From an uncultured bacterium (GTDB taxonomy: Bacteria; Babelota; Babeliae; Babelales; Babelaceae): a stretch of 64,000 nucleotides of DNA. The translations under genes were made by a program, and so were the position numbers. Shown one piece after another: positions 5,381 through 47,246 of this stretch. How positions within the stretch are numbered: position 1 is the stretch's first letter; each line of letters begins with the position of its first letter. The notes under the pieces are model-generated. The model was not told where the DNA came from. It searched no databases and saw nothing but the letters and a program-made list of their open reading frames with translations. The stretch is from the NCBI GenBank assembly GCA_963848965.1, contig CAWKFG010000002.1:1191-65190 (forward strand). The letters are read 5' to 3'.

Positions 5381-6053
5381 TAATTAAATAAACATTATCA
5401 TTGCCACACGCTCTTAGTCTATAATAGAGTGCACAAGCGTCGTTATATGATAACTGATAATCCTGCTTTGAATGAATAATAATGACAGGAACAGTAGTAG
5501 GAATAGAATCAATTGAAAAAATAGGTTGTATACCACCTGGGCTGTACCAGGGAAAGACTATCTTAGCACAATAAGGCAACCAATAGTATGCAAATGGCAA
5601 TTTTGTTACTTTTTTTAAGTTCATTAAAGGACCGCTTACAGTGTGATATATTGCACTATTTCCACTTACTAAAGCTGATTCTAGAATGAGGGCTTGTATC
5701 TGTCTCCCTTGATCTTCAACAAGGTAATTTAATGCTGTTGCTGTTCCTTGAGACGTTGCATGAATAATAAACTTTTTGTCCTTGTTCATTAAACAAGCCT
5801 CTCTAAGAAAATTAATACATTTCCGTTGGCCTAAATCAGGGTAATTTTCTGGTGTTGATACTGGGGTAATTGTAGCCTGATTATCCCCCAGAAGGCCCTT
5901 GATATAATCAGGATTTCCTCCTAGCCCATTTTGCCCAGGAATACTGTAGATATGTAATATGACATTGTTTTGACATATAGCATTAAGCACTACGTTAAAT
6001 ATAAAAACGTGTACCAATGCTATTTTTTTCATAGTATTTAATGTATTCTTCAT
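5367..6053 (-). pseudogene. N-terminal part of a secreted alpha/beta-hydrolase-like gene truncated by the IS
   Basis: Signal peptide, nucleophile-elbow-like HATSQG, and a later IIIHSKQDY. The last four codons (RAYP*) are encoded by the IS right end, so the reading frame runs into the element. Confidence 0.7.
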
Positions 6054-34576: not shown

Positions 34577-34580
34577 AAAT

Positions 34581-34601
34581 AAGGCCGTTTTATGCGGCCT
34601 T
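34581..34601. terminator. hairpin between the convergent alaS and pth genes
   Basis: AAGGCCG-TTTTATG-CGGCCTT, preceded by AAAAAT. Confidence 0.45.
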
Positions 34602-34612
34602 AGAGAACACTG

Positions 34613-35146
34613 TTACTCATACAGTTTTTCGATCATATCAGCTGCAGTCTCTATAAGACGCTCTACTTCCTCTGGCCGTTCTTTAAAGTTTTGAAGTACA
34701 TACTGAGGAACTTCTTCTTTAACTGCCGGACGGCCTATACCAAACCTTAGGCGTGTAAATTGATCTGAGAGATAAGAGATAAGTGATTTAAGGCCATTAT
34801 GTCCTCGGGCACTTCCTCCTTTGCGCAAAGCCATTTTACCAAAAGGAAATTCCAGTTCGTCATGCACTACTAAAATATTATCCGCACGTATACCAGTCTT
34901 TGCAAAATAGGGAATCACTGCTCCTGAATTATTCATAAATGTCTGCGGCTTTACCAAAGTAATAGAAACAGTTCCAATCTGTATCTGAGCGAGCTCCATT
35001 TTATCTTTAGAGCGCCATTGGCCACCAAAACGCTGTGCAAGAGCATCTACAACAAGAAAGCCAATATTATGTCTTGTAAACTTATAAGCAGGCCCTGGGT
35101 TACCAAGGCCTATAATAACTTTAGGAGGTGTAATAGGTGTTTCCAT
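34613..35146 (-). CDS. pth: peptidyl-tRNA hydrolase
   Basis: IIGLGNPGPAYKFTRHNIGF...GHNGLKS are the canonical Pth motifs. Confidence 0.95.
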   Translation of the reverse strand: METPITPPKVIIGLGNPGPAYKFTRHNIGFLVVDALAQRFGGQWRSKDKMELAQIQIGTVSITLVKPQTFMNNSGAVIPYFAKTGIRADNILVVHDELEFPFGKMALRKGGSARGHNGLKSLISYLSDQFTRLRFGIGRPAVKEEVPQYVLQNFKERPEEVERLIETAADMIEKLYE

Positions 35147-35157
35147 ACATTTATACT

Positions 35158-35184
35158 AAAAATGGCTGGAAAGTTCCAGCCATT
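35158..35184 (-). terminator. rho-independent terminator after the skp-like gene
   Basis: Perfect 11-bp stem AATGGCTGGAA-CT-TTCCAGCCATT followed by TTT on the minus strand, 6 nt after the stop codon. Confidence 0.7.
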
Positions 35185-35190
35185 ATTCTT

Positions 35191-35820
35191 TTATACAGTC
35201 TTAGTTTTCTTTACAGGCTCTTTTTCTTTTTCTTTTGCTTTCTTAGCTTTTTCTTCTATATAGCCTTTGTTAAGAGCTGTAAGCACATCATCTGTGATAT
35301 CAAATTGGTCAGCTCCTGCAAGAACTGCTTCTCCACGCAATACAAGGTCCCACCCTTGAGCAATTCGGATATCGTTAATAACTTTATCGAGCTTAGGGCC
35401 AACCTGCCCTTGGGCTTTTTTAACTTCATTCTGTGCGTATGATTCAATCTCTTGCATACGCATGCTCAGTTCATACTCAACACGAGCTACTTCTTCGTAT
35501 TTACGCTTAAGAGCTTCTTGTGAAACTGCCCCACTTGATTGTAATCCTTGAAAATCTTTTTTACCTTTTTCATATTTATCACGAAGATCTGCTATCTCTT
35601 TTTGTGCAGGCTCAAGAATTTCTTGTATCTTGCCATAGAGATCACGCCACTCTGCTGATACTTGACCAAGCGCTTGTGGATCGAGAGAGATAATTTTTTG
35701 AATATTTACGAATGCAATCTTAGGAGCTGTTGCTACACGAGCTACTTTTGGAACTGCCTGCGAATTGCTAAAAAAACCAAGAACTGCCATAATACTTAAT
35801 CCTAAAAATAAACGAGTCAT
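35191..35820 (-). CDS. OmpH/Skp-like periplasmic chaperone
   Basis: ATG at 35820 follows GAAAGG, then a signal peptide (MTRLFLGLSIMAVLGFFSNSQA). KIAFVNIQKII, a long coiled-coil and a lysine-rich tail fit OmpH family features. Confidence 0.6.
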   Translation of the reverse strand: MTRLFLGLSIMAVLGFFSNSQAVPKVARVATAPKIAFVNIQKIISLDPQALGQVSAEWRDLYGKIQEILEPAQKEIADLRDKYEKGKKDFQGLQSSGAVSQEALKRKYEEVARVEYELSMRMQEIESYAQNEVKKAQGQVGPKLDKVINDIRIAQGWDLVLRGEAVLAGADQFDITDDVLTALNKGYIEEKAKKAKEKEKEPVKKTKTV

Positions 35821-35891
35821 ACTAAACCTTTCTCTAAATAACACGGTGCATAGAAACCCTGTCAAAAGAGTAACGCTTTTAAAATAATTCG

Positions 35892-38555
35892 TCAATTGGA
35901 CTCATGTCTTCGTTTACGTACAAAATATTTGCGCATCTCTTCTAATAAAATAATAGAAGAAGCAACAGCAAGCGAAAGAAGCCAATCATAACCATCTAAA
36001 GGCACTGTTTTTAGAATATGCTCTAAAAATGGTACATAAAGTGCAGCTACTTGTAAAAGAATAACGAGCATTGTTGCACCAACAAGCCATTTATTTGATA
36101 GTAATGGGATAGTAAACAGAGAAAGGATTTCAGAGCGGCAGTTCCAAGCATTAAACCACTGAAATGCGGCCATAGTTACCAGTGCTACTGTTCGAGCTTT
36201 CTCCAAAGAATAATGAGTTACATAAAAAGAAAAAAGGAGCAGTGTACCACAAGCCATTATAAGAGCACCATAGCTCATTTTGATTACCATACCTCTATCA
36301 ATGAGATTACCCTTTTGCATCCGTCTTAATGCACTACGCTCAGATTTTTCTGTTCCTAAAGCAATATCTAAAAATCCGTCCGTTACTAAATTAAGCCAAA
36401 GAATTTGTGCAGGTAAAAGAGGAAATGGCATTGAAAGTAAAAAAGCACTACTTATGGTGAGTATCTCACCTAGATTAGTAGTAAAAAGATACAGAATAAC
36501 TCGTCGTAAAGTATAAAAAATATGACGACCTTCTTCAATAGCCTTTATAATACTACCAAATGAATCATCAAGCAATACCATATCAGCTGCTTGTTGTGCT
36601 ACTTCAGTTCCTTTTATACCCATAGCAATTCCTAAGTCTGCTGCAACTAAAGAGGGTACATCATTAACTCCATCTCCTGTCATTGCAACAAGCTTATCCT
36701 TTTTATGAAATAATTCTATGAGTCTCATTTTATCATGTGGTAAAAATCGAGCATAGACACGAATGCGTTCTATGTTTTTTAACAGTTGTTTATCAGAAAG
36801 CTGTTCAAATTCTTTTCCTGTAAGTACTTCATCGTCAGGCTTTAAGAGCCCTATTTCATGTGCTACAAAAAGGGCTGTTTTTGCATGATCTCCTGTTGCC
36901 ATAATAACTTCAAGGCCAAGTTTACGAGCAACAGATACCATCTCTTTTGCATCTGGTCTAATTGCATCCTGAATACCAAGTAATGCCAAAAAGTTTAAAG
37001 TACCTCTCAATTTTTCAAGAAAGAATGTTCTAAAATCTTCTTGGATCTCATTGGAGGATAACTCTTTATAGGCAAGACCAATAACTCGTAGCCCTTGATT
37101 AAGAAAAGCATCAAGTGCATCTAAAACTTCTTGAGAAACTGCATGTGATGCTTGTATAATAGCCTCAGGTGCACCTGAAACAAATACTAGAACCTTTTCA
37201 TCTGCTTTATAAGCAGCTACATGCATACGCAACGTTGCATCAAACGGTATTTCATAAAGAAGCTGATATCTATTAGAAAGCTCTCTTTTATAACCACCTA
37301 ATTTTCGTGCAAAAATATCCATCCCCGCTTCTAAAGGGTCACCCTTAATCTTAAAAAGTTTCGTTTGTAGATCATATCGTATCTCTGCATTACTGAGTAG
37401 AGCTGCTGCATCTCGCGCTAAAAAAAGGTCTTTATGCTCAGCAGTTTCTGGCACTGAGCTACCGTTAAAAAGTACAGCCCCTTCTTCAAAGTATCCTGTG
37501 CCTGTTACATCATAGACATAACCAGGTGTAGAGACTTTAAGTACCATCATCTCATTACGAGTAAGCGTTCCTGTTTTATCAACAACCAATAGTTGAGCTC
37601 GCCCTAATCCTTCTACAGCCTGTAGTCTTTTTACTAGTACATGCTTTTGAGCCATACGATAAGCACCTGCTGCAAGAACTAATGTAACAACAATAGGAAG
37701 TCCTTCGGGAATAACAGAAACACCAAGTGCTACCAATAATAAGAGTACTTCTAAAATGTTTCTGCCCATACTTATTCCGATAATAAAGAGACTAGTACAA
37801 AGCACCAGTAATCCTATAAGTAACAAGCGTGAGAGCCTTTCTATTTGCTTTCGCAAAGGAGTTCGTGTATCTACTCGCTCAATACTCTTTTGAAGTTGTC
37901 CAAGCACTGTATCAAGACCTGTTGCCACTACAATGGCAGATGCATTACCAGTAAGCACATAGGTACCGCTAAAGAGCATATTTGTTTGCTCATACAAAGC
38001 ACGAGGCCCTTCAAGCGTGTTTAACTGCTTTTCTACAGGATTTGATTCTCCTGTAAGCATTGATTCATCTATTTTAAGATCAGATGATGCAATAATACGT
38101 GCGTCTACAGGAACACGTTCGCCTTCTTGCACAATAATAATATCACCCGGTACAAGCTCTTTTGTAGGAATAATATGCTTTTTGCCTTCCCGAACGACAG
38201 TACAGGTAGATGAAATAAATTTTTTTAAACTTAACAATAACGTAGCTGCTCGCCCTTCTTGAATAGTGCCTACCAAAGCATTAAAAAGAAGAACACTCCC
38301 TATAATAGCAGCATCAAGAACGTCTCCTAAAAAGAATACGAGCACTGCAGAAAATGCTAAAATATAAACAAGTGGGCTCGTAAACTGAGAAAGAAAAAGC
38401 TGTATCCATGAAGGAGCTTTTGCCTCTGGCAAACTATTTGGTCCGTATTTTTGTAAGCGCGCCTCTGCTTCCTGTTGAGAAAGGCCCTCAGTAAGTGAAG
38501 TTTTATATTCTGTAGCAAGAGCTTCAGCAGATTGTGCATAGGGCTTTAATTTCAT
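35892..38555 (-). CDS. P2-type cation-transporting P-type ATPase (Ca2+/Mg2+-ATPase-like)
   Basis: TGES, IPEGLP, DKTGTLT, MATGDH and TGDGVNDVPSL, with 10 predicted TM segments. Confidence 0.9.
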   Translation of the reverse strand: MKLKPYAQSAEALATEYKTSLTEGLSQQEAEARLQKYGPNSLPEAKAPSWIQLFLSQFTSPLVYILAFSAVLVFFLGDVLDAAIIGSVLLFNALVGTIQEGRAATLLLSLKKFISSTCTVVREGKKHIIPTKELVPGDIIIVQEGERVPVDARIIASSDLKIDESMLTGESNPVEKQLNTLEGPRALYEQTNMLFSGTYVLTGNASAIVVATGLDTVLGQLQKSIERVDTRTPLRKQIERLSRLLLIGLLVLCTSLFIIGISMGRNILEVLLLLVALGVSVIPEGLPIVVTLVLAAGAYRMAQKHVLVKRLQAVEGLGRAQLLVVDKTGTLTRNEMMVLKVSTPGYVYDVTGTGYFEEGAVLFNGSSVPETAEHKDLFLARDAAALLSNAEIRYDLQTKLFKIKGDPLEAGMDIFARKLGGYKRELSNRYQLLYEIPFDATLRMHVAAYKADEKVLVFVSGAPEAIIQASHAVSQEVLDALDAFLNQGLRVIGLAYKELSSNEIQEDFRTFFLEKLRGTLNFLALLGIQDAIRPDAKEMVSVARKLGLEVIMATGDHAKTALFVAHEIGLLKPDDEVLTGKEFEQLSDKQLLKNIERIRVYARFLPHDKMRLIELFHKKDKLVAMTGDGVNDVPSLVAADLGIAMGIKGTEVAQQAADMVLLDDSFGSIIKAIEEGRHIFYTLRRVILYLFTTNLGEILTISSAFLLSMPFPLLPAQILWLNLVTDGFLDIALGTEKSERSALRRMQKGNLIDRGMVIKMSYGALIMACGTLLLFSFYVTHYSLEKARTVALVTMAAFQWFNAWNCRSEILSLFTIPLLSNKWLVGATMLVILLQVAALYVPFLEHILKTVPLDGYDWLLSLAVASSIILLEEMRKYFVRKRRHESN

Positions 38556-38586
38556 GAAAAACTCCGCGCTAGAAGTACTCTACCAT

Positions 38587-39345
38587 TCATTTATGATTTG
38601 CTGCAAATTTGTGCCTTAAAAATTGCAAAATTTTTCCTTCAATAGCTTCATCTGTACGACTAGGTAAACTGAACTTAAACTTTTGCTGTACTGGTTTGAG
38701 GTTATTCATAAATCGTTGTGATACAATAGTTGCTGTTTGGCGTAATATACCTTCTTTTATATCAGTAGGCAGTTCATTAAAACTTTTTTTGTCATACTCA
38801 GCTTTTTCAATAAATGGTAAGGCAACTAGCATAGCCTCTGAAGTTAAAAACCGTAGCGCCCAGTCTTGTAGCGTAGTACCAACTGGTGTTTTATGCTCTT
38901 TTAAATGAGTAATTAAAGTGTCATAAGCAGTCTCCAATTCAGGTGTTAAAGTATCTACAGGAACCTGAAAGACGCTTTCTGGATTTATTACTTCAACAAT
39001 AAGATTGCGAAGTTCAATAAGATCCTTGTCTTGAGCACCAGCTTTTGCAAATTTTTTTATAAAGCCGTTTGCTACCTCATCAGCTTTGGTTTTAAGCTCA
39101 GAATCAGAAAGTACTCTACTAAAAGGCATCTGCGATTCATCTACAATATACTTTATACTCGCTGGTGTAAGCAAGTTACGCAAATGTTCTGAAAACTCTG
39201 GGTGTGGTGTCCTTTTTTTCCACTCTAAAAAAGCAGTATCTGCTTCTTTGTTTTTCTCTTCAATAGTAAGCACCCCTGGCTGTGCATATGCAAGCACAGG
39301 AACTATACTTATTATAAAAAACATATATCTTCTTAAATTAATCAT
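38587..39345 (-). CDS. hypothetical secreted protein
   Basis: 252-aa ORF with a signal peptide and no recognisable motif. Confidence 0.35.
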   Translation of the reverse strand: MINLRRYMFFIISIVPVLAYAQPGVLTIEEKNKEADTAFLEWKKRTPHPEFSEHLRNLLTPASIKYIVDESQMPFSRVLSDSELKTKADEVANGFIKKFAKAGAQDKDLIELRNLIVEVINPESVFQVPVDTLTPELETAYDTLITHLKEHKTPVGTTLQDWALRFLTSEAMLVALPFIEKAEYDKKSFNELPTDIKEGILRQTATIVSQRFMNNLKPVQQKFKFSLPSRTDEAIEGKILQFLRHKFAANHK

Positions 39346-39438
39346 AGGTATCCCCCCTTAAAAATTATTTCTATTAATAATTTATCAAAATGGCTTGTGC
39401 TTATTCAATAAAATGCTTAATAAAATGTTGGAACCTAC

Positions 39439-39470
39439 GAAAATGTTCGGAATGGAAAAGAATTAAAAAG
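39439..39470 (+). repeat. 32-nt direct repeat flanking the TA cassette (left copy)
   Basis: gaaaatgttcggaatggaaaagaattaaaaag. It matches 40240..40272 with 2 substitutions and 1 indel. A partial extra copy (aaaatgttggaac) lies at 39422-39434. Confidence 0.7.
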
Positions 39471-39491
39471 AAGGCAAACTACGCTCGATGA

Positions 39492-39803
39492 TCATTTTTT
39501 GCTCTTAAAAATTTCTTGGGGCTCTTTTTCAAGAGTTGCGAGAAGATGCGCTAAGCTAGATAAAGTTAAGTTAGCTTCACCACGTCTAATCTTAGCAACT
39601 TGGACTGGAGTTGAATCTAACCGTCTTACAAGTTCATTAAAGCCAATATTATGCTTACTCATATAATCTTCCATAGCAGATGAGATTGATTCTTGTAATA
39701 AGGACAAGAATCTAATTTCACGTTCTGCTCGTTCTTCAATTTCAGCAATTTCATTTTTGCTTAATCTCTTTTCAAGATATTCTTGAAAACTTTTTGTTTT
39801 CAT
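39492..39803 (-). CDS. XRE-family HTH antitoxin (HigA-like)
   Basis: 103 aa. The HTH is FNELVRRLDSTPVQVAKIRRGEANLTLSSLAHLL. It sits immediately downstream of a Gp49-like toxin. Confidence 0.7.
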   Translation of the reverse strand: MKTKSFQEYLEKRLSKNEIAEIEERAEREIRFLSLLQESISSAMEDYMSKHNIGFNELVRRLDSTPVQVAKIRRGEANLTLSSLAHLLATLEKEPQEIFKSKK

Positions 39804-39815
39804 AAATGTCCTTTT

Positions 39816-40136
39816 CTATAACTGTGAAAGCCGCTTACGTGCAATCCTTATATCCCTTTCTTGTTCTGATTTATTACCTGCAGCAAGCAAAATAATTATA
39901 TCACCACCAGAAAATGAATAATAAATTCTATAACCATACTTAAGTTCTCGTAATTCAAAAAGACCCTTCTTTAAAGGTCTACTATGTGGAAGTTTTAACG
40001 CATTGCCAGATTTTTCCAAGATTTTTATTACAGCAGCAACCTCCTTAAACTGTTCATCCGTTAGCGAGTTAAACCATTTTTCAATAGGATTGTTCTTTTT
40101 TGCCCCATCCCAGTACTCAATTTTCCATCTCTTCAT
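39816..40136 (-). CDS. Gp49/HigB-like RelE-superfamily toxin (DUF891 type)
   Basis: 106 aa. ...PIEKWFNSL...KLPHSRPLKKGLFELRELKYGYRIYYSF.GGDIIILLAAGNK matches the phage Gp49-like killer pattern. Confidence 0.75.
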   Translation of the reverse strand: MKRWKIEYWDGAKKNNPIEKWFNSLTDEQFKEVAAVIKILEKSGNALKLPHSRPLKKGLFELRELKYGYRIYYSFSGGDIIILLAAGNKSEQERDIRIARKRLSQL

Positions 40137-40239
40137 AAATGATAAGGCCTTCCCTACGAAAGACTTAATATGCTATATTTTAATATAGTACATTAAAATA
40201 TAGCAGTCAACTCATCCTTTTAAAACGTTTGAGTTTTAT

Positions 40240-40272
40240 GAAAATGTTTGGAACGGAAAAGAATTGAAAAAG
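40240..40272 (+). repeat. direct repeat flanking the TA cassette (right copy)
   Basis: gaaaatgtttggaacggaaaagaattgaaaaag. Confidence 0.7.
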
Positions 40273-40334
40273 TGTGATAGCTAAAGTTTAAGAAAATCTA
40301 TGAAAGGAGAAAAAGAAACATATAAAAAAATTTA

Positions 40335-40699
40335 GGAGGCGCCTGAATTACAAACTCATCTTGCCGAACCACCGTACTTAAACCACTCCAAGTATAGTCT
40401 TTGTGCTTGCACTCTAGTGTAGTCGCAAAGACTCGATTCATACTAGAGACTAGGTTTATGATCCCTCAAGTTATACACCTAAAAATTCACTTGAGGTCCT
40501 CTTGATACCTTATGAGCATACAGGCCAAGAGAATGCCTTCGAGCTCATAAGTGCAGCGACCGCTTTGTGCCGATGCCCGTGGAGTCACAGCTTCCACGCG
40601 TTACTTGACCCATGTATTACGAGCGCAGGGGTCATCTTACTCGACTTGCGTTTTAAGTATGCGCGGCAGCCTTAAGCCCTATGGCTTATGAGCGCCTCC
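40335..40699. ncRNA. candidate large structured RNA of unknown family (minus strand slightly favoured)
   Basis: No ORF of 60 aa or more on either strand, and GC is clearly higher than the flanks. The closing helix is 40335-42/40692-99 and a long-range helix is 40375-82/40652-59. Perfect hairpins of 6-9 bp lie at 40396-403/40426-33, 40464-71/40489-96, 40509-17/40543-51, 40578-83/40593-98 and 40606-11/40629-34. A/T runs sit at both ends. Confidence 0.4.
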
Positions 40700-40744
40700 G
40701 CTTTTTTCTTTATATGTCAAAGACAAACTTATCTTACTATTCTT

Positions 40745-40774
40745 ACTATAATTTATTTTAAATCAAATTGTCAA
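40745..40774 (-). promoter_or_regulatory. sigma-70-like promoter facing the candidate RNA locus
   Basis: On the minus strand, TTGACA (40774-40769), an 18-nt spacer, then TATAGT (40750-40745), about 45 nt upstream of the closing helix. Confidence 0.35.
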
Positions 40775-40920
40775 TTATTTTTTGAAAAAGAAAAAGAATT
40801 TGAAGAAACTATAAGAAAGAAATGAATTTTTAAGAAGTTTTTTGCATTGAGTTATCAATGCTTTTAGAATTTTTAACTAATCCTTGCTTTCAGCTACACC
40901 GGGTTACAGCATAGCTCCTT

Positions 40921-40967
40921 TAAGAGCGACCGTGTCCGCCGAAGCTCGCAGAGCGAAGGAGGAAGGT
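40921..40967 (-). repeat. CCTTCGC/CTTCGG-rich short element, copy E3, abutting the tmRNA 3' end
   Basis: The minus strand reads ACCTTCCTCCTTCGCTCTGCGAGCTTCGGCGGACACGGTCGCTCTTA immediately after the tmRNA CCA. It is related to E1 and E2 next to the GIY-YIG genes. Confidence 0.6.
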
Positions 40968-41328
40968 TGGTGGAGGCGATGGGAATCGAACCCATGTCCG
41001 CACTACAATCGACTTAAAGCGCTACATGCTTAGTCTTTATCAATTCTTATAAAAATACTTAAAGACAGGTATTTTTTATAAGCTTGGTTTGTGTTCATTC
41101 AAGCTACAGACCAAGGTAACCTTGCTTGACGTCCTATAAAGGGTAATACGAGCCTTATCGATCTATAGGCATATCAATGAGACAAGTGTGTTGCCGCTAT
41201 TAAGCGAAAGCAACAGCAGATTGTGCTGTATTTGCACTTATTGTTTGACCATTTATTTTACGAGTACTCAGTCAAAGCTCGGCATGCTCTTCAAGCGTCT
41301 TATAACACGTCGAAGCCAGTACGCCCCC
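40968..41328 (-). ncRNA. ssrA: transfer-messenger RNA (tmRNA, SsrA), 361 nt
   Basis: The 5' end GGGGGCGTACTGGCTTCGACGTG and the 3' end GGACATGGGTTCGATTCCCATCGCCTCCACCA form a 7-bp acceptor stem with G3:U, plus a T-arm and CCA. The internal reading frame GCA AAT ACA GCA CAA TCT GCT GTT GCT TTC GCT TAA TAG gives the tag ANTAQSAVAFA. Confidence 0.92.
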
Positions 41329-41352
41329 GAATCTTTCAAAGAATTCATTATA

Positions 41353-41381
41353 AGAATACCACAGTAAACTATCTTTGTCAA
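41353..41381 (-). promoter_or_regulatory. sigma-70-like promoter for ssrA
   Basis: On the minus strand, TTGACA (41381-41376), a 17-nt spacer, then TATTCT (41358-41353), directly followed by TATAAT (41352-41347). It lies about 20-25 nt upstream of the mature 5' end. Confidence 0.45.
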
Positions 41382-41600
41382 TTTAAAACCCTGTACCAAA
41401 AGCACGTATTTTACCTTCTAACGCTCGAATAAGGTTTCCTATAAACTATTATTAATGCCTTATAGTCAAAGAAGGGCTCTTCATTAAAAAGACTCTTGAC
41501 TGAATTATTCTTTTCAGTATACTAATATTTGAAATTAAATTGTTTTTATAGAACTTTCTTAGTTTTTTATTTATATTTATCATTATATAATGAGATTGTC

Positions 41601-42884
41601 ATGAAAAAATTACTTTTCTATGCCCTTATCTATGCAGTTGGAAGCTGCTCTTTCTTTATGTATTCTATGGAAAACCCTTTTGATGACTTTAATGTAGACC
41701 TTATAGACTTTGGATACATTGATAACGTTGATAATTTTTCTCTAGAAAGTTTTATTGACCTTAGTCCTTCAGAAGATCTTTCGCACAAAAAAAGGCCATA
41801 TAATGCCGAAATTATTCAACAAGATGCTCTTGTTCAAGAAAGTCCTCAAAAAAAGTTAAAAATCGATGGTTCAGTTGCTCTTCTTTTAAAAGAATTACAA
41901 ATGCTTGAAGAGAAGCATAGAGCAGTACGTGCAAATCTTATAGAAGAGGCAAAAAAGCTTGCATTACGATGCCAGGTTAACTTTGATTTGATACGTCCTT
42001 TAGATTTAAACTATAACAACCTTCCCTTATACGAAGGCGTATCAAAACTTTCACAAGATCTTCTTTTAAAAAGTAAAGATGCTCCTTTTCTTTTAACATT
42101 ACAACCAAAGGCTCGTGCAGAACTTCTTACTGCACTCACAGTAAAAACAGAGATTATTATAAAAGAAGTGACTGTTCTAGAAAAAGTCCTTGAATGTATT
42201 AGCACTGGATCTACATTCACACATACAGTTTATCCGCAGCCCGAAACAGAGCTTCTTGATGTTATTCAGCTTGATCAGCTTCTTAAAGAATCATTACGGT
42301 GCTCTCGAGATTCAGAACGATCAAGAGACTCTTGGCTTACAAAATTGAAGTGGTTAATCTCTTTATATTCATTTAATATCTCTAAAAAATTTGCTCGCCA
42401 ATTAGGTGAAGAATCTCATAATCCATTACACGAAGTGTTTCAAAAGACTCTCGGTAATGCACTTATTGTACATGCAAAACATCATAGCATTACTTATAAA
42501 GACTTTTGCACGCTTTTAAAATTTATTATGCAAGATAGTCCTTTAGCTGCACCATTTATTGCTCGTGTAGGAGAATTTTTAGCATCAATACATGCAACAC
42601 ACACGAAACTTGGACTTATTAAAAGTCTTATTAGCCAAACGTTAAAAGCAAGCATTAATGCAGCTGAAACTAAAGAGGTATTTACCTGTGCTATTTGTTA
42701 TGAAGCACTTTCAGTATCTTCTAAACAATCTCTTTCTCAAGATGATTTCCAAGGTATTGTTACTCCTGCCTGCGCTTGTCAAAATTATTACCATAAAGCC
42801 TGTCTTGAAAAATGGATAGCAAACGGCTGCCCTATTTGCAAACGAAAAGTTGGTATTCAACCTATTATTAATCCTCAATCATAG
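41601..42884 (+). CDS. secreted protein with a C-terminal C4HC3 RING-like zinc finger (candidate E3-ligase-like effector)
   Basis: The ATG at 41601 (MKKLLFYALIYAVGSCSFF signal) is preferred over the TTG at 41529. The C-terminus reads CAIC-x24-CAC-x4-H-x2-C-x8-CPIC and contains HKACLEKW. Confidence 0.6.
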   Translation: MKKLLFYALIYAVGSCSFFMYSMENPFDDFNVDLIDFGYIDNVDNFSLESFIDLSPSEDLSHKKRPYNAEIIQQDALVQESPQKKLKIDGSVALLLKELQMLEEKHRAVRANLIEEAKKLALRCQVNFDLIRPLDLNYNNLPLYEGVSKLSQDLLLKSKDAPFLLTLQPKARAELLTALTVKTEIIIKEVTVLEKVLECISTGSTFTHTVYPQPETELLDVIQLDQLLKESLRCSRDSERSRDSWLTKLKWLISLYSFNISKKFARQLGEESHNPLHEVFQKTLGNALIVHAKHHSITYKDFCTLLKFIMQDSPLAAPFIARVGEFLASIHATHTKLGLIKSLISQTLKASINAAETKEVFTCAICYEALSVSSKQSLSQDDFQGIVTPACACQNYYHKACLEKWIANGCPICKRKVGIQPIINPQS

Positions 42885-42893
42885 AAAGTTTAT

Positions 42894-43433
42894 ATGAATA
42901 CATATATCTTAGCTCTCCTTCTTACAACGAGTACCTTTTTATGTGCTATGGAAGTACCTACAAAAGCTCTTGAAGCTCATATTACAGCACTTATTGAGCG
43001 CAAAAAAAGACAACTTGATACTGATCAAGAGCAGCTTGCAGCTATTAAAAGTCGCCTTGAGGTCTATTCTACTCTTGACAATGATGCACATAGAATTCGT
43101 CTAAGACAAGCAGAGCTTGCAAAAGAACTTGATGAAACGCAAAAGCAAAAACTGCAAGAAATGAGAACTCTTGTTGATGAATTTCAACAAAAAAAAGCTC
43201 GCATTGAACAAAAGTATGCAGCTTTAGCCCAAGAAGCTCGTGCTCAAAAAGATTTTGTTGGCCAACAACAAGAGCTCGCAGTACGCGAGACTAGACGCTT
43301 GGCACAAACAGATATTCAATTTCTCTTAAATCTTAACAAAGTACCTGTTTTGCCTGAAAGACCAAATACACCTATTAGTTCTCCTAAAGCACCACCAGCT
43401 TTCCCTTTTCAAGGATACTCACCAAAAAAGTGA
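42894..43433 (+). CDS. hypothetical secreted coiled-coil protein
   Basis: 179 aa with a signal peptide and a Gln/Glu/Lys-rich heptad-like sequence. No enzymatic motif. Confidence 0.35.
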   Translation: MNTYILALLLTTSTFLCAMEVPTKALEAHITALIERKKRQLDTDQEQLAAIKSRLEVYSTLDNDAHRIRLRQAELAKELDETQKQKLQEMRTLVDEFQQKKARIEQKYAALAQEARAQKDFVGQQQELAVRETRRLAQTDIQFLLNLNKVPVLPERPNTPISSPKAPPAFPFQGYSPKK

Positions 43434-43934
43434 TTATGCAATCTCTATAAGCTCTATATCAAAAATAAGATGAGCATTTGCAGGTATTACTGGAGGATAT
43501 CCATAGGTTCCATAGCCAAGTTGTGGTGGAATAAAGAATCGTACTTTATCTCCTAAATGCATTTCGAGCAGCCCTTCATCCCATCCTTGGATAACATTAC
43601 CACTTCCTACAATAAACGAAAAGGACCTGCCATGATCATAGCTGCTATCAAACTTTCTTCCTGGTCTATCATTACCATCATTCAACCATCCAGTATAGTG
43701 TACGGTAACACGCTGTCCTGGTTTCGGTGTTGTTTGTCCATTCCCATCATGTAATATCTGGTACTTTAATCCAGAGGGAAGAGTAATTTCATCACTAGGT
43801 AAAGGTTTGTCTTGCATAGCAGATTCCTTATCTTTTTGAGCATGAACATGTTTTTTACTATCAAGTTGAGCAATAAGAATGTAACATCCTACCACTCCCC
43901 CTAATAACAGACTAACTACTATATTTTTTCTCAT
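43434..43934 (-). CDS. FKBP-type peptidyl-prolyl cis-trans isomerase (secreted/anchored)
   Basis: VTVHYTGWL.DG..FDSSYD.G.SFSF.VG.G.VI.GWDEGL..M..G......IPP.LGYG is the canonical FKBP core. Confidence 0.9.
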   Translation of the reverse strand: MRKNIVVSLLLGGVVGCYILIAQLDSKKHVHAQKDKESAMQDKPLPSDEITLPSGLKYQILHDGNGQTTPKPGQRVTVHYTGWLNDGNDRPGRKFDSSYDHGRSFSFIVGSGNVIQGWDEGLLEMHLGDKVRFFIPPQLGYGTYGYPPVIPANAHLIFDIELIEIA

Positions 43935-44081
43935 AGAACTCTCCTTATTCAGATCTCAGCACACACTATACTATAGACTGAAAGAAGAATCAAAAATAAT
44001 ATACCAATTAACAAAATGCAATAACATTCGTATACTGGAAAAGTATCTTTAAAAAGCATCTTTTGTAAGAAAGGCACTTTC

Positions 44082-44987
44082 ATGAATACTATTGCCCTTT
44101 CGCGAAAGCTTCTTATTGGCATTGCTCTTAATAGCGGCTTTACTCTTTTTGAGTTTTTAATGGGCTATTTCTCTGGGAGCCTTTCCTTAATTTCTGACGC
44201 TTCTCATAATCTTGCAGATGTTCTTAGTCTTTGTATAACACTGTTTGCTTACAAAGTTGCCCAAAGAAAACCATCTGCATATAAAACATATGGCTATGGA
44301 AAAATAACTATTTTTAGTGCATTGCTCAATGGCCTCATACTTATAGTCCTTGCAGGCTCCTTGTTTTATGAAGCATATGAACGATTTTGGCAGCCCCATA
44401 CAATTGAAGGGAATCTTGTTGTGGTAGTAGGGTTGTTAGGTATCCTCGTAAATGGGAGTATCGCACTCTTATTTCTCAATGAACGCCATGATCTTGCAAT
44501 TCAGAGTGCATTTCTTAATATGCTGTTTGATACTCTCGCTTCTGCAGGAGCAGTATGTGCTGGACTTATTATTGCACTCACAGGATATATGGCTATTGAT
44601 ACTCTTATGAGCGGCCTCATTGGTACATTACTTATCATAAGCAGTTACGGGCTTCTTAAAGAGGCATTTCATCTGCTTCTGGGAGGAACACCACGTCATA
44701 TTAATACTCAAAAGATAACGTCTTTGATAAAAGAAACAACAGCAGTTGTTGCTGTCAATGATCTGCATATATGGGCACTTTCTTCAGAATATACTGCTTT
44801 AAGCTGCTCTCTTACACTTGAATGCCACAACCTTTTTACGTGTGCTCAAATAATTAAAGAGCTTAAAGCAAAAATTGGAGAACAACACAATATTCATCAT
44901 ATAACAATTGAGGTACAACCTGCTACATTACTGGTCTTGAATAAGGAGCTCAACTGCTGCTTGATTAATGAGGTCAAAAAGATTTGA
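44082..44987 (+). CDS. cation diffusion facilitator (CzcD/ZitB-like) transporter
   Basis: GSLSLISDASHNLADVLS (the TM2 HxxxD-type motif), six TM segments and a C-terminal cytoplasmic domain. Confidence 0.9.
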   Translation: MNTIALSRKLLIGIALNSGFTLFEFLMGYFSGSLSLISDASHNLADVLSLCITLFAYKVAQRKPSAYKTYGYGKITIFSALLNGLILIVLAGSLFYEAYERFWQPHTIEGNLVVVVGLLGILVNGSIALLFLNERHDLAIQSAFLNMLFDTLASAGAVCAGLIIALTGYMAIDTLMSGLIGTLLIISSYGLLKEAFHLLLGGTPRHINTQKITSLIKETTAVVAVNDLHIWALSSEYTALSCSLTLECHNLFTCAQIIKELKAKIGEQHNIHHITIEVQPATLLVLNKELNCCLINEVKKI

Positions 44988-45785
44988 TGCTGGCATCAAC
45001 ATTCCTGGTGACGCCATTACACAAGGAGCTTCAAGTGCGTCTTCTTGATCATAAAGTGCTCCTAGAGCAGCCAAAGATCTTTCAAGAGAGCTTCTTAAAC
45101 TTTGAGCCAGTTGTTGGTAGGCAGGATTACTTTTAAATGCCTTTATTTGATTGCGCAACTGCACCATTTTTGGATGTGTTTGAAGTATGGATCGTATTTT
45201 AATACTCAGTGCATTAATTTGCTGTGTATAGTTCCGTAATCGCTGAGCTATTTGAGCATTTATTTTTTGTAACTCTTGCTGCAATGGAGCAAGATTTGTA
45301 GCTGATAATGTTTTAATTTGCTCTTCAAGAGACTCGGCCTGCTGACCTTGCTCATACGTCAAAACAGGTGTTTCATAGATAATACTCACTGTTTTTTGTA
45401 ATTGCTGAATTTTCTGAAATTCCGGAGTTTTTTGATAGTCTGCAATCTGCTTATTAACCTCATCTGCACGTGTACCTAATTGTTGAATAATTGGATCAGA
45501 GTCCATAAGAGTACATTCTTGGTCAATGATTGAAGATAATTGGTTAAAAAGAGGAGCAATTCCCAACTCGCCGCTTAAAATACTAAACTGCAACTTAATA
45601 TTTTTTAAAGCATGCAAAAACTCAGATCCTCCTTCAACAGCAAGAATAGCATTACCCAACTTCTTTTTTTCTTGTTTAATTTGTACATCAAGAGCCTGTA
45701 GCTGAGCTTCTTGAGTCTGCTGTGCATACACAAAACTACCTAAGAATACGATAATTATTAGAGATTTTTTCATTATTTTACCCAT
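44928..45785 (-). CDS. hypothetical secreted coiled-coil protein
   Basis: 285 aa with a signal peptide and a Gln-rich heptad-like sequence. Its 3' end overlaps the CDF gene end by 60 nt. Confidence 0.35.
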   Translation of the reverse strand: MGKIMKKSLIIIVFLGSFVYAQQTQEAQLQALDVQIKQEKKKLGNAILAVEGGSEFLHALKNIKLQFSILSGELGIAPLFNQLSSIIDQECTLMDSDPIIQQLGTRADEVNKQIADYQKTPEFQKIQQLQKTVSIIYETPVLTYEQGQQAESLEEQIKTLSATNLAPLQQELQKINAQIAQRLRNYTQQINALSIKIRSILQTHPKMVQLRNQIKAFKSNPAYQQLAQSLRSSLERSLAALGALYDQEDALEAPCVMASPGMLMPASNLFDLINQAAVELLIQDQ

Positions 45786-45921
45786 ACTTTTTATTTAATA
45801 ATATAAAATATAATTATAGATAAAAGAAAGATTTTTAATGAGATTTACACATACAGAAAAGATTTCAAGATTTGGATTTATTTTACAAAAGTATCTTTGT
45901 ATTCTTTTGAACTATGCCCCA

Positions 45922-46374
45922 CTAAAACTTTCCACGAAGTTCTCTGCGAGTTTCTCGTGCAATATCCCGTTCTCTAAGCTCTTCCTTCTTTGCATGAGCT
46001 TTTTTATGTTTGCATAATCCAAGCTCTACTTTAACTTTTCCTTTATCATTAAAATACAGCTTTAAAGGAACAAGTGTCACTCCTTTACGAGAGATATCTC
46101 CTACAATTCTCGTAAGCTCTCGTCGATGCACTAAGAGTTTGCGAGTACGACGAGCTAGTTCTTCACTCTTAGAATAGGCATGAGAGTACGGTGGAATATA
46201 ACAGTTAATGAGATTAAGCTCATTCTGATGAATAGTAGCAAATGAACCAGGAAGTGAAACCTGGTTTGCTCGTAAAGACTTTACTTCATCGCCAGTAAGT
46301 ACAATACCAGTTTCAATGCGGTCTAAAATTTCATAATCATGAAAAGCTTTTTTATTTTGAGCAATAATTTTCAT
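45922..46374 (-). CDS. smpB: SsrA-binding protein SmpB
   Basis: The ATG at 46374 is preferred (MKIIAQNKKAFHDYEI...GIVLTGDEVKSLR...LVPLKLYF.DKGKVKVELGL.KHKK). Confidence 0.95.
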   Translation of the reverse strand: MKIIAQNKKAFHDYEILDRIETGIVLTGDEVKSLRANQVSLPGSFATIHQNELNLINCYIPPYSHAYSKSEELARRTRKLLVHRRELTRIVGDISRKGVTLVPLKLYFNDKGKVKVELGLCKHKKAHAKKEELRERDIARETRRELRGKF

Positions 46375-46583
46375 ACAACCTTTAAACAAAAAACTCTGAG
46401 CACTTTCTAAAAGCAGTAGCTAGATTATAACAAAACAATATTACAGATAAAAGCCGTTTTTTTATTAGTATAACAGAGATTCAGTAGGAAATAAACTAAC
46501 GCCCATTTCTATTTATTGACAAATAAGAACTTATTAATATATAATTTGTATAAAAACAAGTTTATTTTAAAATGAGAAACGTT

Positions 46584-47246
46584 ATGAATAAGAGATACAT
46601 TCTTGCTGTTCTTATGACAGCTTCATCACTTAAAGCAATGGAACGGGAAGAGGGGCTACCTTATCTTCAAGTACTATCAAAACTCAAAACAGATCAACCA
46701 TCCTATCTTGGCCGTGTACCTAAAGAGCTCCATGAAGAGCTTTTAAATTTTACGATTCCTCATCTTGTCGAACAATATGCAAAAAGCTATTCAAATCTTT
46801 ATGACGTTTACGATCAATGGTCTATAATACCTGCCATACTAAATAAAGTAAAAACAGATCTAAAAAAAGAAGGTCATACAGAAGAGATTATGAAAGATCC
46901 TGCATTTATTCCTGTTCTTATTGGAAGTATAGCACGCTCTTTATATCGTGCTCCTTTCCAAGTCGCTGTAGCACTAGAAGATGAAGCTGCTCAAAAGTGG
47001 CTTAAAAATGCCCTTGCAAATCCGCAAATAAAACGACAAGCTATTGATTTGTTCTTTCAAATCGTAGCAAATCAAGATATGGATATAAAGCAAAGAGCAA
47101 ACATAATAACTAAGCTCCTTAATGCAGGCATTGATGTCAATACTAAAAGCAAGCAGGGTAATACACCGTATACAGTAGCATTAACAAAGCAAGATGCAGC
47201 TATGACACGCTTTTTAAAATCAAAAGGCGGTAAATTGCAAGATTAA
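46584..47246 (+). CDS. secreted protein with an LPxEL-like motif and a C-terminal ankyrin repeat
   Basis: Signal peptide (MNKRYILAVLMTASSLKA), YLGRVPKELHEELLNF, and a C-terminal LLNAGIDVNTKSKQGNTPYTVAL. Confidence 0.55.
   Translation: MNKRYILAVLMTASSLKAMEREEGLPYLQVLSKLKTDQPSYLGRVPKELHEELLNFTIPHLVEQYAKSYSNLYDVYDQWSIIPAILNKVKTDLKKEGHTEEIMKDPAFIPVLIGSIARSLYRAPFQVAVALEDEAAQKWLKNALANPQIKRQAIDLFFQIVANQDMDIKQRANIITKLLNAGIDVNTKSKQGNTPYTVALTKQDAAMTRFLKSKGGKLQD

Follow-up and report, generated by a model that had tools for sequence, protein, structure and literature searches.

A conserved tmRNA-derived paralog located next to ssrA in Dependentiae and predicted to be incapable of canonical trans-translation

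In the 64,000-nt stretch of DNA analyzed here (the window), positions 40335 to 40699 of the minus strand very probably code for an RNA of ca. 365 nt that originated when ssrA was duplicated in tandem, together with its promoter, in an ancestor of a lineage of Dependentiae (TM6) and has since been inherited vertically, under purifying selection and with the tmRNA architecture kept. Its parent or sister gene, a canonical tmRNA, is found at 40968 to 41328 of the same strand (RF00023, 182.5 bits; also called by ARAGORN; tag ANTAQSAVAFA), and the paralog is located 268 nt downstream of it with an almost equal length (RNA position i corresponds to window position 40700-i). The genes of the cognate AlaRS (alaS, 31967 to 34576) and of the cognate SmpB (45922 to 46389) are also in the window. 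Judging from its sequence, the paralog would be a copy of tmRNA that is maintained by selection and incapable of canonical trans-translation, and it probably has a job other than that of tmRNA; alanylation and tagging are the task of the canonical ssrA beside it. This explanation as a whole, i.e., an ssrA-derived paralog that lost the canonical activity and acts as a structural mimic, appears likely to us. No description of this paralog was found in the literature on tmRNA paralogs, pseudogenes, tmRNA-like RNAs, or tmRNA in Dependentiae.

The first-pass annotation of this DNA had described a structured RNA of a family that could not be named and without tRNA-like elements. This assignment had to be abandoned, since a local cmscan search gave a match to RF00023 (38.0 bits, E value of 1.4e-13, model positions 33 to 332, i.e., 300 of 374) and nhmmer connected the paralogs with canonical tmRNAs at E values of 1e-5 to ca. 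1e-11, both indicating a diverged tmRNA homolog. The match is significant but below the Rfam gathering score (38 versus 47 bits), so that curated membership of RF00023 is not reached. A confident Rfam match had been put forward as a refutation of novelty; the match does exist, but it stays under the gathering score and most functional hallmarks of tmRNA fail, which argues that the paralog is not simply a known RNA. Other paralogs scored 42.1 (L084) and 35.9 (L083) bits against the same model, with no RF00023 report for L082 at an E value of ≤0.01 or for L001 and L006 at the gathering score. A scan of the window at the Rfam gathering score found the true tmRNA alone, and ARAGORN made no call at the paralog locus, neither for the window nor for any of the homologs. 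All the elements shared with tmRNA (P1, P2, pseudoknots 1 to 4 [PK1 to PK4], and the T stem) are present, and their order, P1-P2-PK1-P5-PK2-PK3-PK4-T arm, is that of tmRNA. Within 40150 to 40900, nothing significant except tmRNA was detected by cmscan on either strand at an E value of ≤10; RNase P, SRP, 6S, ROOL, GOLLD, HEARO, OLE, and raiA, with no model match in this search, were rejected; for RNase P and SRP, this agrees with the first-pass annotation. A permuted (two-piece) tmRNA (RF01849-51, RF04321) was also rejected, given the colinear order and the lack of a permuted-model match at the locus.

The RNA is closed by P1, whose acceptor-like 5′ strand GGAGGCG (40693 to 40699), with an A at position 3, is invariant in 12 of 12 homologs and pairs with CGCCUCC at 40335 to 40341, a heptamer that had been noticed in the tmRNA too and is in fact the acceptor 3′ strand of both genes. 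No CCA follows; the next bases are UAAAUUUUUUU. P1 is the 8-bp closing helix previously noted (GGAGGCGC at 40335-42 with GCGCCTCC at 40692-99), and a second long-range helix of 8 bp (TACTTAAA at 40375-82 with TTTAAGTA at 40652-59) turned out to be P2, the long helix (40644 to 40671 with 40360 to 40393) between the tRNA-like end and the pseudoknot body. A D-arm-like hairpin, UAAGCC-AUAG-GGCUUA (40673 to 40688; its core, AAGCC-CTAT-GGCTT at 40674-87, had been reported correctly), replaces the D-loop motif of tmRNA, and a hairpin of 4 to 6 bp with differing sequence occupies this position in nine of nine mini-domain folds. PK1 (40606 to 40643; P3 CGAG/CUCG and P4 UGACCC/GGGUCA) is near-invariant, loops included. 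It is followed by two hairpins, P5a and P5b (40553 to 40598), at the position of the tag reading frame, and then by PK2 (40497 to 40551; P6 CUUAUGAGC/GCUCAUAAG and P7 UUCUCUUG/CAAGAGGA, helices 10 and 11), PK3 (40450 to 40495; P8 CUCAAGU/ACUUGAG and P9 UUAGGU/ACCUAG), and PK4 (40397 to 40448; P10 CUCUAGU/ACUAGAG and P11 GUCUUUG/CAAAGAC, helices 13 and 14). The T-arm-like hairpin AUGAG-UUUGUAA-UUCAG (40343 to 40359) has a conserved stem and has lost the T-loop motif, and an extra unpaired layer sits between P1 and the T stem. Each sequence tested forms the four-way junction as well as PK1 to PK4, and the hairpins listed in the first-pass annotation are real; they correspond to P5 and to first stems of pseudoknots. 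A 9-mer, CTTATGAGC, does occur twice (40509 and 40685) and its partner GCTCATAAG once (40543), as had been stated, but the alternative pairing suggested on this basis is not a conserved feature; apart from the window, only its closest relative, L085, has the 9-mer at RNA positions 7 to 15 as a second copy, which L087 and the remaining homologs lack.

The GC content of the locus (48.5%) stands out from that of the window (35.9%) and of the flanks (22%), which agrees with the earlier count of 33 G+C in the 60 nt of 40561-40620 against 8 in those of 40741-40800. The paralog folds with a minimum free energy of −126.6 kcal/mol (z = −3.4), a stability equaled by only 1 of 100 dinucleotide shuffles, and the fold exceeds chance. 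The longest open reading frame overlapping the locus has 57 aa, so that none attains 60 aa. A sigma-70-type promoter-like site, TTGACA-18-TATAGT, matching 11 of 12 consensus positions, is found on the minus strand at 40745 to 40774, separated from the RNA by a leader of 45 nt (40700 to 40744), as had been described. The same arrangement, TTGAC(A/T), a spacer of ca. 18 nt, and TAnnnT, was recognized on visual inspection in 10 homologs among the 11 having upstream sequence (in L091, the TTGAC candidate is less clear). On the other side, a trailer with a U7 run (40324 to 40334), the T7 run contained in the bases after P1 and reported before, could be a termination or processing signal. U runs after P1 were also seen in L085, L087, L002, and L084, while L001, L003, and L091 have hairpin and U-run terminators right after the RNA. 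The transcript, its ends, and its abundance are predicted from these promoter-like and terminator-like sequences. The conserved −35/−10 pair, together with the retention of the paralog in L087, where the locus lacks a canonical ssrA, suggests that it is expressed independently. Fold, promoter, and absence of open reading frames all fit the stable, structured, noncoding RNA gene of the minus strand, with a promoter of its own, that had been proposed.

We recovered 12 full-length and three partial homologs from Dependentiae in independent NCBI, JGI, ENA, and Logan assemblies, all of them metagenomic and from one lineage. The 12 complete ones share the ends GGAGGCG...CGCCUCC. Another candidate, L081, coming from a metagenome pattern scan, was rejected as a chance match. 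The fetched loci were searched for paralogs with an nhmmer profile; as the profile reaches even canonical tmRNAs, further paralogs in these loci would have shown. The paralogs are monophyletic and 60 to 85% identical, the identity with the canonical tmRNA of the respective genome is ca. 48%, and their flanks are AT rich and unalignable. Their divergence tracks that of the canonical genes (r = 0.89), with mean pairwise identities of 68% for the paralogs and 76% for the canonical copies. Canonical ssrA was recovered beside the paralog in eight loci (in L091, partially), and in every one of them the paralog directly follows it; in L087, the paralog is retained and canonical ssrA is absent from the locus. 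The neighborhood is conserved and includes alaS and smpB, and no conserved partner gene was found near the paralog. The only recurrent neighbor codes for a secreted protein of ca. 240 aa with no Pfam match, which starts 20 to 35 nt past P1 on the same strand in L006, L082, L083, and L084. In the window, a toxin-antitoxin pair is located between its ortholog (38587 to 39345) and the RNA, and in L001 to L004 the gene is not downstream of the RNA, with other or no genes there. As for a mobile origin, there was no integrase at the site and no match to a phage genome, plasmid, or IMG/VR contig.

Compensatory changes among homologs, which had been proposed as the test of the helices, are abundant. 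Across the 98 pairs assessed, 94.8% of the cells are paired, compared with 36 to 46% when the 3′ partners are slid, and 45 pairs changed on both sides, compared with 11 to 19 in the slid controls; none of 500 shuffles attained the observed value. RNAalifold gave compensatory changes in 45 of 91 pairs and, when run again, in 31 of 75. By element, both sides changed in 16 of the 23 pairs of P2 (helices 2 to 5) and in all seven of P8, and compensatory changes affected half of the 16 pairs of P5a and P5b (helices 8 and 9). Within P4, pair 84:108 is A-U in five sequences and G-C in four. P9 and the D-like hairpin are out of register in the MAFFT alignment, and both were assessed in each sequence separately; a P9-type helix of 6 to 9 bp with differing sequence forms in nine of nine homologs. 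The near-invariant parts are P1, PK1, and PK2. All seven pairs of P1 are invariant, and of the other 91 only 31 never vary, so that by simple arithmetic the chance of an invariant P1 is ca. 5e-4 (0.34^7), which argues for a sequence-specific reader. Conserved G·U pairs (e.g., 44:367, in eight of nine sequences) fix the strand.

The hallmarks that have been lost are those of charging and tagging. All 12 homologs have A-U at pair 3:70 instead of the G3·U70 of the canonical tmRNAs of the same genomes, which start with GGGGGCG. None of the 12 paralogs encodes CCA, the bases after P1 being UAAA, AUAA, AUCG, AACA, AUCU, CACA, AGAG, GUUA, AACU, UUAA, UUAU, and AACU, with a discriminator that varies among U, A, C, and G, whereas the canonical copies end in ...CGCCUCCACCA and CCA is encoded in three of three tRNA genes of the loci. 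In a former study (PMC5041485), G3:U70 and discriminator A73 are given as the chief requirements of AlaRS, and this signature is described as "always present in tmRNA sequences." Neither the T-loop GGUUCGAnUCC nor the D-loop analogue GGCUUCGACG exists in the paralogs, both motifs being invariant in the canonical copies; the T-like loop is variable (4 to 10 nt) as opposed to an invariant GGGUUCGAYUCCC. The elbow formed by the D- and T-loops is the surface read by SmpB and the ribosome. No conserved tag peptide or small open reading frame was found in three frames of nine homologs: would-be tag frames go from an immediate stop to >40 codons, a stop comes directly past the would-be resume codon in four of the nine, and the PK1-PK2 segment measures 53 to 58 nt with length steps that are not multiples of three. 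With A3-U70, no CCA, a variable discriminator, ordinary hairpins in place of the elbow, and covarying hairpins in place of the reading frame, the paralog is predicted, with good confidence, to escape alanylation and to be incapable of protein tagging, and recognition by SmpB and AlaRS would be lost. Processing of the tRNA type or even noncanonical charging may occur, since CCA can be added posttranscriptionally and a cloverleaf-like junction and an invariant acceptor stem are present.

A drifting tandem duplicate of ssrA without function would explain the loss of G3·U70, CCA, loop motifs, and tag frame and the score below the Rfam threshold, and duplicates of this kind are routinely discarded by the curators of tmRNA databases, being taken for pseudogenes or false positives (PMC4131195; PMC11915505). 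However, a decaying pseudogene is highly improbable for an RNA found in 12 lineages in which 45 out of 98 pairs have both-side changes and 94.8% of the cells stay paired, with 48.5% GC in a 36% GC genome and flanks of 22%, a conserved promoter, and near-invariant P1, PK1, and PK2. It has diverged just slightly faster than the canonical gene (68 versus 76%) and has been retained in reduced genomes, even after separation from ssrA in L087; identities of 60 to 85% exclude very recent copies, and a full-length RNA with both ends and no mobile element at the site speaks against an integration fragment as well. Function as a second working tmRNA is somewhat less improbable, although still quite unlikely. 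CCA would be added posttranscriptionally, AlaRS or another synthetase would charge the RNA despite A3-U70, there would be a very short tag or none, and rescue could take place without tagging. The junction does resemble a cloverleaf, with the invariant 7-bp acceptor stem stacked on a T-like stem of 5 bp; PK1 is conserved, as is the GUUAUGCG after it, with the Ala codon GCG in 11 of 12 homologs, and other Dependentiae have two full tmRNA genes. Yet the AlaRS determinants G3·U70 and A73 (PMC5041485) are replaced by an A-U pair in 12 of 12 and by a discriminator that can be U, A, C, or G, and the elbow read by SmpB is gone, with an unpaired layer between P1 and the T stem and T- and D-loops of varying length. 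The sequence after GCG differs in each lineage and lies inside covarying hairpins, and the genomes that truly have a double ssrA keep both tRNA-like domains (TLDs) intact.

The proximity of the secreted-protein gene, 20 to 35 nt after P1 on the same strand in four loci (L006, L082, L083, and L084), could indicate a cis-acting element, either a 5′ leader or processing platform for this gene or an insulator or terminator of ssrA. We deem this very unlikely, given the toxin-antitoxin pair that intervenes in the window, the terminators (L001, L003, and L091) or U runs (window, L085, and L087) after the RNA, the other or missing downstream genes of L001 to L004, and a 365-nt fold of four pseudoknots with tRNA-like ends that exceeds the needs of a leader. 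Just as improbable is a competitor acting by the acceptor stem, in which P1 would bind AlaRS unproductively or its 5′ strand would swap onto the canonical 3′ strand, where A3-U70 would take the place of G3·U70 and charging would be blocked. The invariance of P1 in seven of seven pairs, when most other helices covary, its identity at 13 of 14 bases (G3 to A) with the equally invariant canonical P1, and the presence of alaS in the same conserved neighborhood are in its favor. Nonetheless, this idea is purely inferential and leaves the conservation of four pseudoknots unexplained; intramolecular P1 should be strongly favored, the discriminator and CCA that AlaRS also reads are absent, and no other conserved pairing between both RNAs survived comparison. 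One such pairing, between UGYACUUAU of the paralog and the resume region AUAAGUGCA of the canonical tmRNA, was not supported, the 9-mer changing together with its intramolecular P6 partner in L003, L084, and L091, and unrestricted duplexfold of paralog and canonical RNA produced meaningless full-length "duplexes." As for an entirely new family without kinship to any known RNA, no Rfam family reaches the gathering score here, but the significant RF00023 match, the homology found by nhmmer, the identical order of elements, and the tandem position with ssrA make it a practically negligible prospect.

How a tmRNA-derived mimic could work can be outlined as follows. Transcription would start at the promoter of the paralog itself, maturation or termination would take place at P1, and the resulting RNA would imitate the structure of the tmRNA body without being chargeable. 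Binders of this body, such as S1 or the small subunit of the ribosome or else a tmRNA-directed nuclease, could then be engaged by the near-invariant PK1 and PK2 and the other parts of the pseudoknot ring, with the result that trans-translation would be modulated or buffered or that a new ribosome-associated role would appear. Fixation of A3 might prevent charging and entry into stalled ribosomes without a message. As a complete mechanism, a nonchargeable mimic working via its pseudoknot body is speculative, being the reading that we favor with low confidence. The decoy idea also leaves unexplained why the elbow was remodeled rather than retained; a molecule with a TLD only is a known way of titrating SmpB (PMC4131195). 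Somewhat easier to defend, if still tentative, is the notion of a naturally selected "dead" tmRNA, unchargeable, stripped of its message, and constrained in the pseudoknot ring, whose body would be functional without alanylation or tagging. If true, trans-translation in Dependentiae might have a built-in antagonist or buffer, or the RNA might be a new one associated with the ribosome.

Dependentiae are obligate intracellular bacteria, and tmRNA is regarded as near-universal in bacteria. An RNA that fails the tRNA-like checks and yet is conserved, evolves by compensatory changes, and has a separate promoter across a lineage of small genomes would amount to a separation-of-function experiment of evolution, with the pseudoknot body kept and charging, SmpB-type elbow, and tag lost. 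It makes an old question, the purpose of the tmRNA pseudoknots, testable, and it would represent a new class of RNA missed by present annotation pipelines (Rfam gathering score and ARAGORN).

The closest known system is canonical tmRNA itself, with which the paralog shares length, order of elements, the blocks AAAGACUA and GUCUUUG, a sigma-70-type promoter of its own, and the smpB neighborhood. It differs by A3-U70, the lack of an encoded CCA, the variable discriminator, the absence of T- and D-loop motifs, with a real D-like hairpin and an extra layer between P1 and the T stem, and two hairpins instead of the tag frame; where a match was reported, Rfam scores are 36 to 42 bits, and identity is ca. 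48%. Duplication of ssrA with adjacent or nearby copies is found in other members of the phylum (L057 and L032). There, both copies keep GGGGGCG...CGCCUCCA, T-loop, and tag frame (119 to 144 bits), whereas here one copy has been remodeled and conserved in the remodeled state. The ssrA pseudogenes and 3′ fragments of genomic islands (PMC4131195) are likewise tmRNA-like, beside ssrA, and fail the TLD checks. However, they lack one end or consist of the 3′ piece alone and are not conserved, while the paralog is full length, has its own promoter, and covaries across 12 lineages without an integrase. Another derivative devoid of full trans-translation is the TLD-only gene of mycobacteriophage DS6A, which, as summarized in PMC4131195 from Mao et al. 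2009, is thought to be interfering and was proposed to titrate SmpB; going by that summary, it consists of the tRNA-like domain with the body dropped, and the paralog is the opposite half, with the body kept and the tRNA-like domain remodeled. Finally, the mRNA-like function has also been lost in mitochondrial tmRNAs and in reduced tmRNAs such as that of Nasuia, which may lack tag frames (PMC11915505). These are the sole tmRNA of their genomes and, by the criteria of the curators, keep the tRNA-like domain and the CCA-tail positions (PMC11915505), whereas the paralog of Dependentiae exists alongside an intact tmRNA and is devoid of the signals for charging.

The only gene detected by Rfam at curated thresholds is the true tmRNA, ssrA (40968-41328, minus strand, 182.5 bits). 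When 40150-40900 was scanned permissively, a single match was significant, to RF00023 (tmRNA), at 40373-40661 on the minus strand, covering model positions 33-332 of 374. Its 38 bits are under the gathering score of 47, with an E value of 1.4e-13, and thus the locus at 40335-40699 (minus strand) is a diverged tmRNA homolog. ARAGORN made no call for this paralog, which lies 268 nt downstream of the true tmRNA on the same strand, has a similar length (365 vs 361 nt) and shares with it blocks such as AAAGACUA, UUUAAGU and CGCCUCC in pairwise alignment. The first-pass annotation had the coordinates, helices, motif copies and base counts right, as well as the G+C enrichment (48.5% versus 35.9% in the window and 22% immediately upstream) and the absence of ORFs of 60 aa or more. 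The stable structured RNA that it described is also borne out by folding of the minus strand (-126.6 kcal/mol, more stable than shuffles, z = -3.4) and by covariation, but not its view that the family could not be named; the finding is real, yet more specific than supposed.

A SmpB scan of GTDB representatives provided 80 loci, those with lineage labels being all Dependentiae, TM6 or Babelota, and in roughly 48 the canonical tmRNA is downstream of smpB. Searching relatives with nhmmer, as the first-pass annotation had proposed, recovered strong homologs in five (L001-L004 and L006, E 1e-21 to 1e-36), all starting 100-650 nt past the canonical gene and sharing its strand. Three more (L082-L084) were gained by a metagenome scan with the pattern of pseudoknot PK1, and L085, L087 and L091, plus partial copies in L088-L090, via homologs of the adjacent 252-aa protein. 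A family profile run across 84 loci found no further members, the remaining matches being weak and to canonical tmRNAs themselves, and phage, plasmid and viral-contig collections had no match. Identity is 60-85% among paralogs and about 48% between them and canonical tmRNAs. In a joint tree the paralogs form one clade, and their pairwise distances rise in step with those between canonical genes (r = 0.89; on average 68% vs 76% identity), a pattern indicating a single old duplication and vertical descent thereafter. The locus L087 has the tmRNA-like gene (5507-5867 of this JGI contig) and no canonical tmRNA anywhere in its 12.8 kb, so the paralog is kept even apart from ssrA. This is a tmRNA-derived RNA class, so far confined to one Dependentiae lineage.

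RNAalifold predicted 91 pairs from the nine-sequence alignment (alignment A3), 45 of them with compensatory changes; adding the pseudoknot stems gave 98 pairs in 15 helices. Standard pairs fill 94.8% of cells, versus 36-46% after a shift of the 3' partners by 1-3 columns, and 45 of the 98 pairs change on both sides with pairing kept (11-19 in the slid controls), while none of 500 column shuffles attained any observed measure. These figures show the structure to be under selection. In stems P8 and P10 every pair changes. MAFFT misaligns P9 and the D-like hairpin, which were judged one homolog at a time: 9/9 form a P9-type helix, 6-9 bp long and differing in sequence, and "mini" constructs of both ends give in 9/9 the same predicted four-way junction of the closing stem P1, D-like hairpin, long P2 and T-like hairpin. 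Adding three sequences left the outcome unchanged (31/75 nested pairs compensatory); in L091, for instance, CGUGG/CCACG becomes CAUGG/CCAUG. Conserved G·U pairs identify the minus strand as functional. P1 is invariant at 7/7 pairs, whereas only 31/91 of the other pairs never vary, and by simple arithmetic the chance of this is ca. 5e-4 (0.34^7). Such invariance amid varying helices suggests a sequence-specific reader, or selection holding nucleotide A3. PK1 and PK2, loops included, are nearly invariant, P11 and GACUAUAC are conserved among paralogs, and in P2, PK3 and P10 only the pairing is kept.

The hallmarks of tmRNA charging and tagging have been lost. Canonical tmRNAs of the same genomes have both ends invariant (GGGGGCGUACUGGCUUCGACGU ... 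GGACAUGGGUUCGAYUCCCAUCGCCUCCACCA), carry G3·U70 and encode CCA. In contrast, paralogs have GGAGGCG ... CGCCUCC ends in 12/12, so that pair 3:70 is A-U, any of the four bases can follow P1, and none has a CCA there; tRNA genes in the fetched loci encode CCA in 3/3. The T stem is retained, with a variable loop of 4-10 nt and one unpaired layer between it and P1, and a variable hairpin replaces the D-loop motif. No conserved reading frame exists between PK1 and PK2 in nine paralogs: the would-be resume codon GCG meets an immediate stop in 4/9 and opens a run of 3 to >40 codons in the rest, the sequences differ in length by numbers not divisible by three, and two hairpins, with eight compensatory pairs, form in this segment. 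AlaRS recognizes mainly G3:U70 and the discriminator A73, a signature said to occur in tmRNAs without exception (PMC5041485), and so we infer that the paralog is probably not alanylated and cannot tag proteins; canonical trans-translation would be beyond it.

It should be expressed on its own signals. The TTGACA-18-TATAGT pair noticed in the first pass is at 40774-40745 (minus strand), 45 nt ahead of the first G of the closing helix, and the run of seven T (U7 in the RNA) is directly past it. An equivalent TTGAC(A/T), ca. 18-nt spacer and TAnnnT precede 10/11 homologs with upstream sequence, L091 being less clear. Hairpin and U-run terminators are predicted downstream in L001, L003 and L091, and U runs follow in the window, L085, L087, L002 and L084. 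A leader block, TTGA(C/A)ATAT(A/G)..., conserved in the window (40700-40722), L001, L082, L084, L085 and L091, 15-25 nt upstream of the first base, between the -10 and P1, could be a processing or regulatory signal. The extra GCUCAUAAG at 40685-40693 (RNA positions 7-15) duplicates the 3' strand of P6, and alternative pairing had been proposed from it. However, it is shared only with the closest relative, L085, and absent from L087 and other homologs, so it is a peculiarity of that lineage and not a conserved switch.

Both RNA genes sit in a translation quality-control neighbourhood (window 31967-46389; also L006, L087 and L091), with alaS, pth, an OmpH-like gene, an FKBP gene and smpB in the window. 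The conserved order is smpB ... FKBP - ssrA - ssrA-like - (240-aa protein) - ompH/skp - pth ... alaS, i.e., the genes of AlaRS (tmRNA charging) and peptidyl-tRNA hydrolase remain linked to both. The most frequent downstream neighbour, starting 20-35 nt past the RNA in L006 (13194-13916) and L082-L084, encodes a lineage-specific secreted protein of ca. 240-260 aa (homologs P0002-P0006) with a conserved NKEADTAFLxW motif near the N-terminus; the window ortholog (252 aa, 38587-39345, minus strand) matches no Pfam family. There the genes of a Gp49/HigB-like toxin (39816-40136) and of an HTH antitoxin (39492-39803), both on the minus strand, lie between it and the RNA, an insertion absent from L085, L006 and L082-L084. 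HigB toxins are reported as cleaving tmRNA in M. tuberculosis (PMC3912914). Inserted between ssrA and the FKBP gene is a gene whose 451-aa product carries a RING-H2-like finger at its C-terminus (41529-42884, plus strand; sub-threshold Pfam matches), and an ORF at 46572-47246 (plus strand) looks ankyrin-like by eye; homologous loci have called ankyrin-repeat genes. Eukaryote-like effector genes are expected in an intracellular parasite of protists.

In sum, selection has kept this tmRNA paralog as a folded RNA. A drifting, decaying pseudogene is excluded by the compensatory changes in its helices, and an unrelated new RNA family is refuted by the RF00023 match, among other signs of homology to tmRNA. 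As a tentative and rather speculative proposal, the RNA would be a non-chargeable stand-in for the tmRNA body that engages the small ribosomal subunit, S1, a nuclease or whatever else recognizes PK1, PK2 and the ring of pseudoknots, either tuning trans-translation or serving a new ribosome-linked role; fixation of nucleotide A3 would fit selection against charging a message-less RNA. Rival readings, each unlikely, are a second working tmRNA with odd rules, against which the lost charging and tagging features speak, a cis leader for the downstream gene, and an RNA whose acceptor stem, the invariant P1, competes for AlaRS or for the canonical tmRNA.

Duplication of ssrA seems recurrent in Dependentiae, with differing outcomes. 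Two other genomes carry double genes of canonical type, L057 (13036-13466 and 13996-14349) and L032 (10552-11019, minus strand, and 15398-15755). Unlike the paralog, all these copies are complete, with GGGGGCG...CGCCUCCA, intact T-loop, tRNA-like domain and tag, and Rfam scores of 119-144 bits; within each pair one tag is long and the other short, showing the appearance of an ordinary second allele. Curators of tmRNA databases list second alleles, pseudogenes in which one end is missing, fragments derived from genomic islands and a phage gene with only the tRNA-like domain, and they reject duplicates with poor AlaRS features or without CCA positions (PMC4131195, PMC11915505). In the literature searched on tmRNA paralogs, pseudogenes and Dependentiae tmRNA, we found no conserved, covarying, non-alanylatable, tag-less paralog described. 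Such a gene falls below the Rfam threshold and escapes ARAGORN, and its interest is that nature has here parted the body of tmRNA from its charging and tagging functions.
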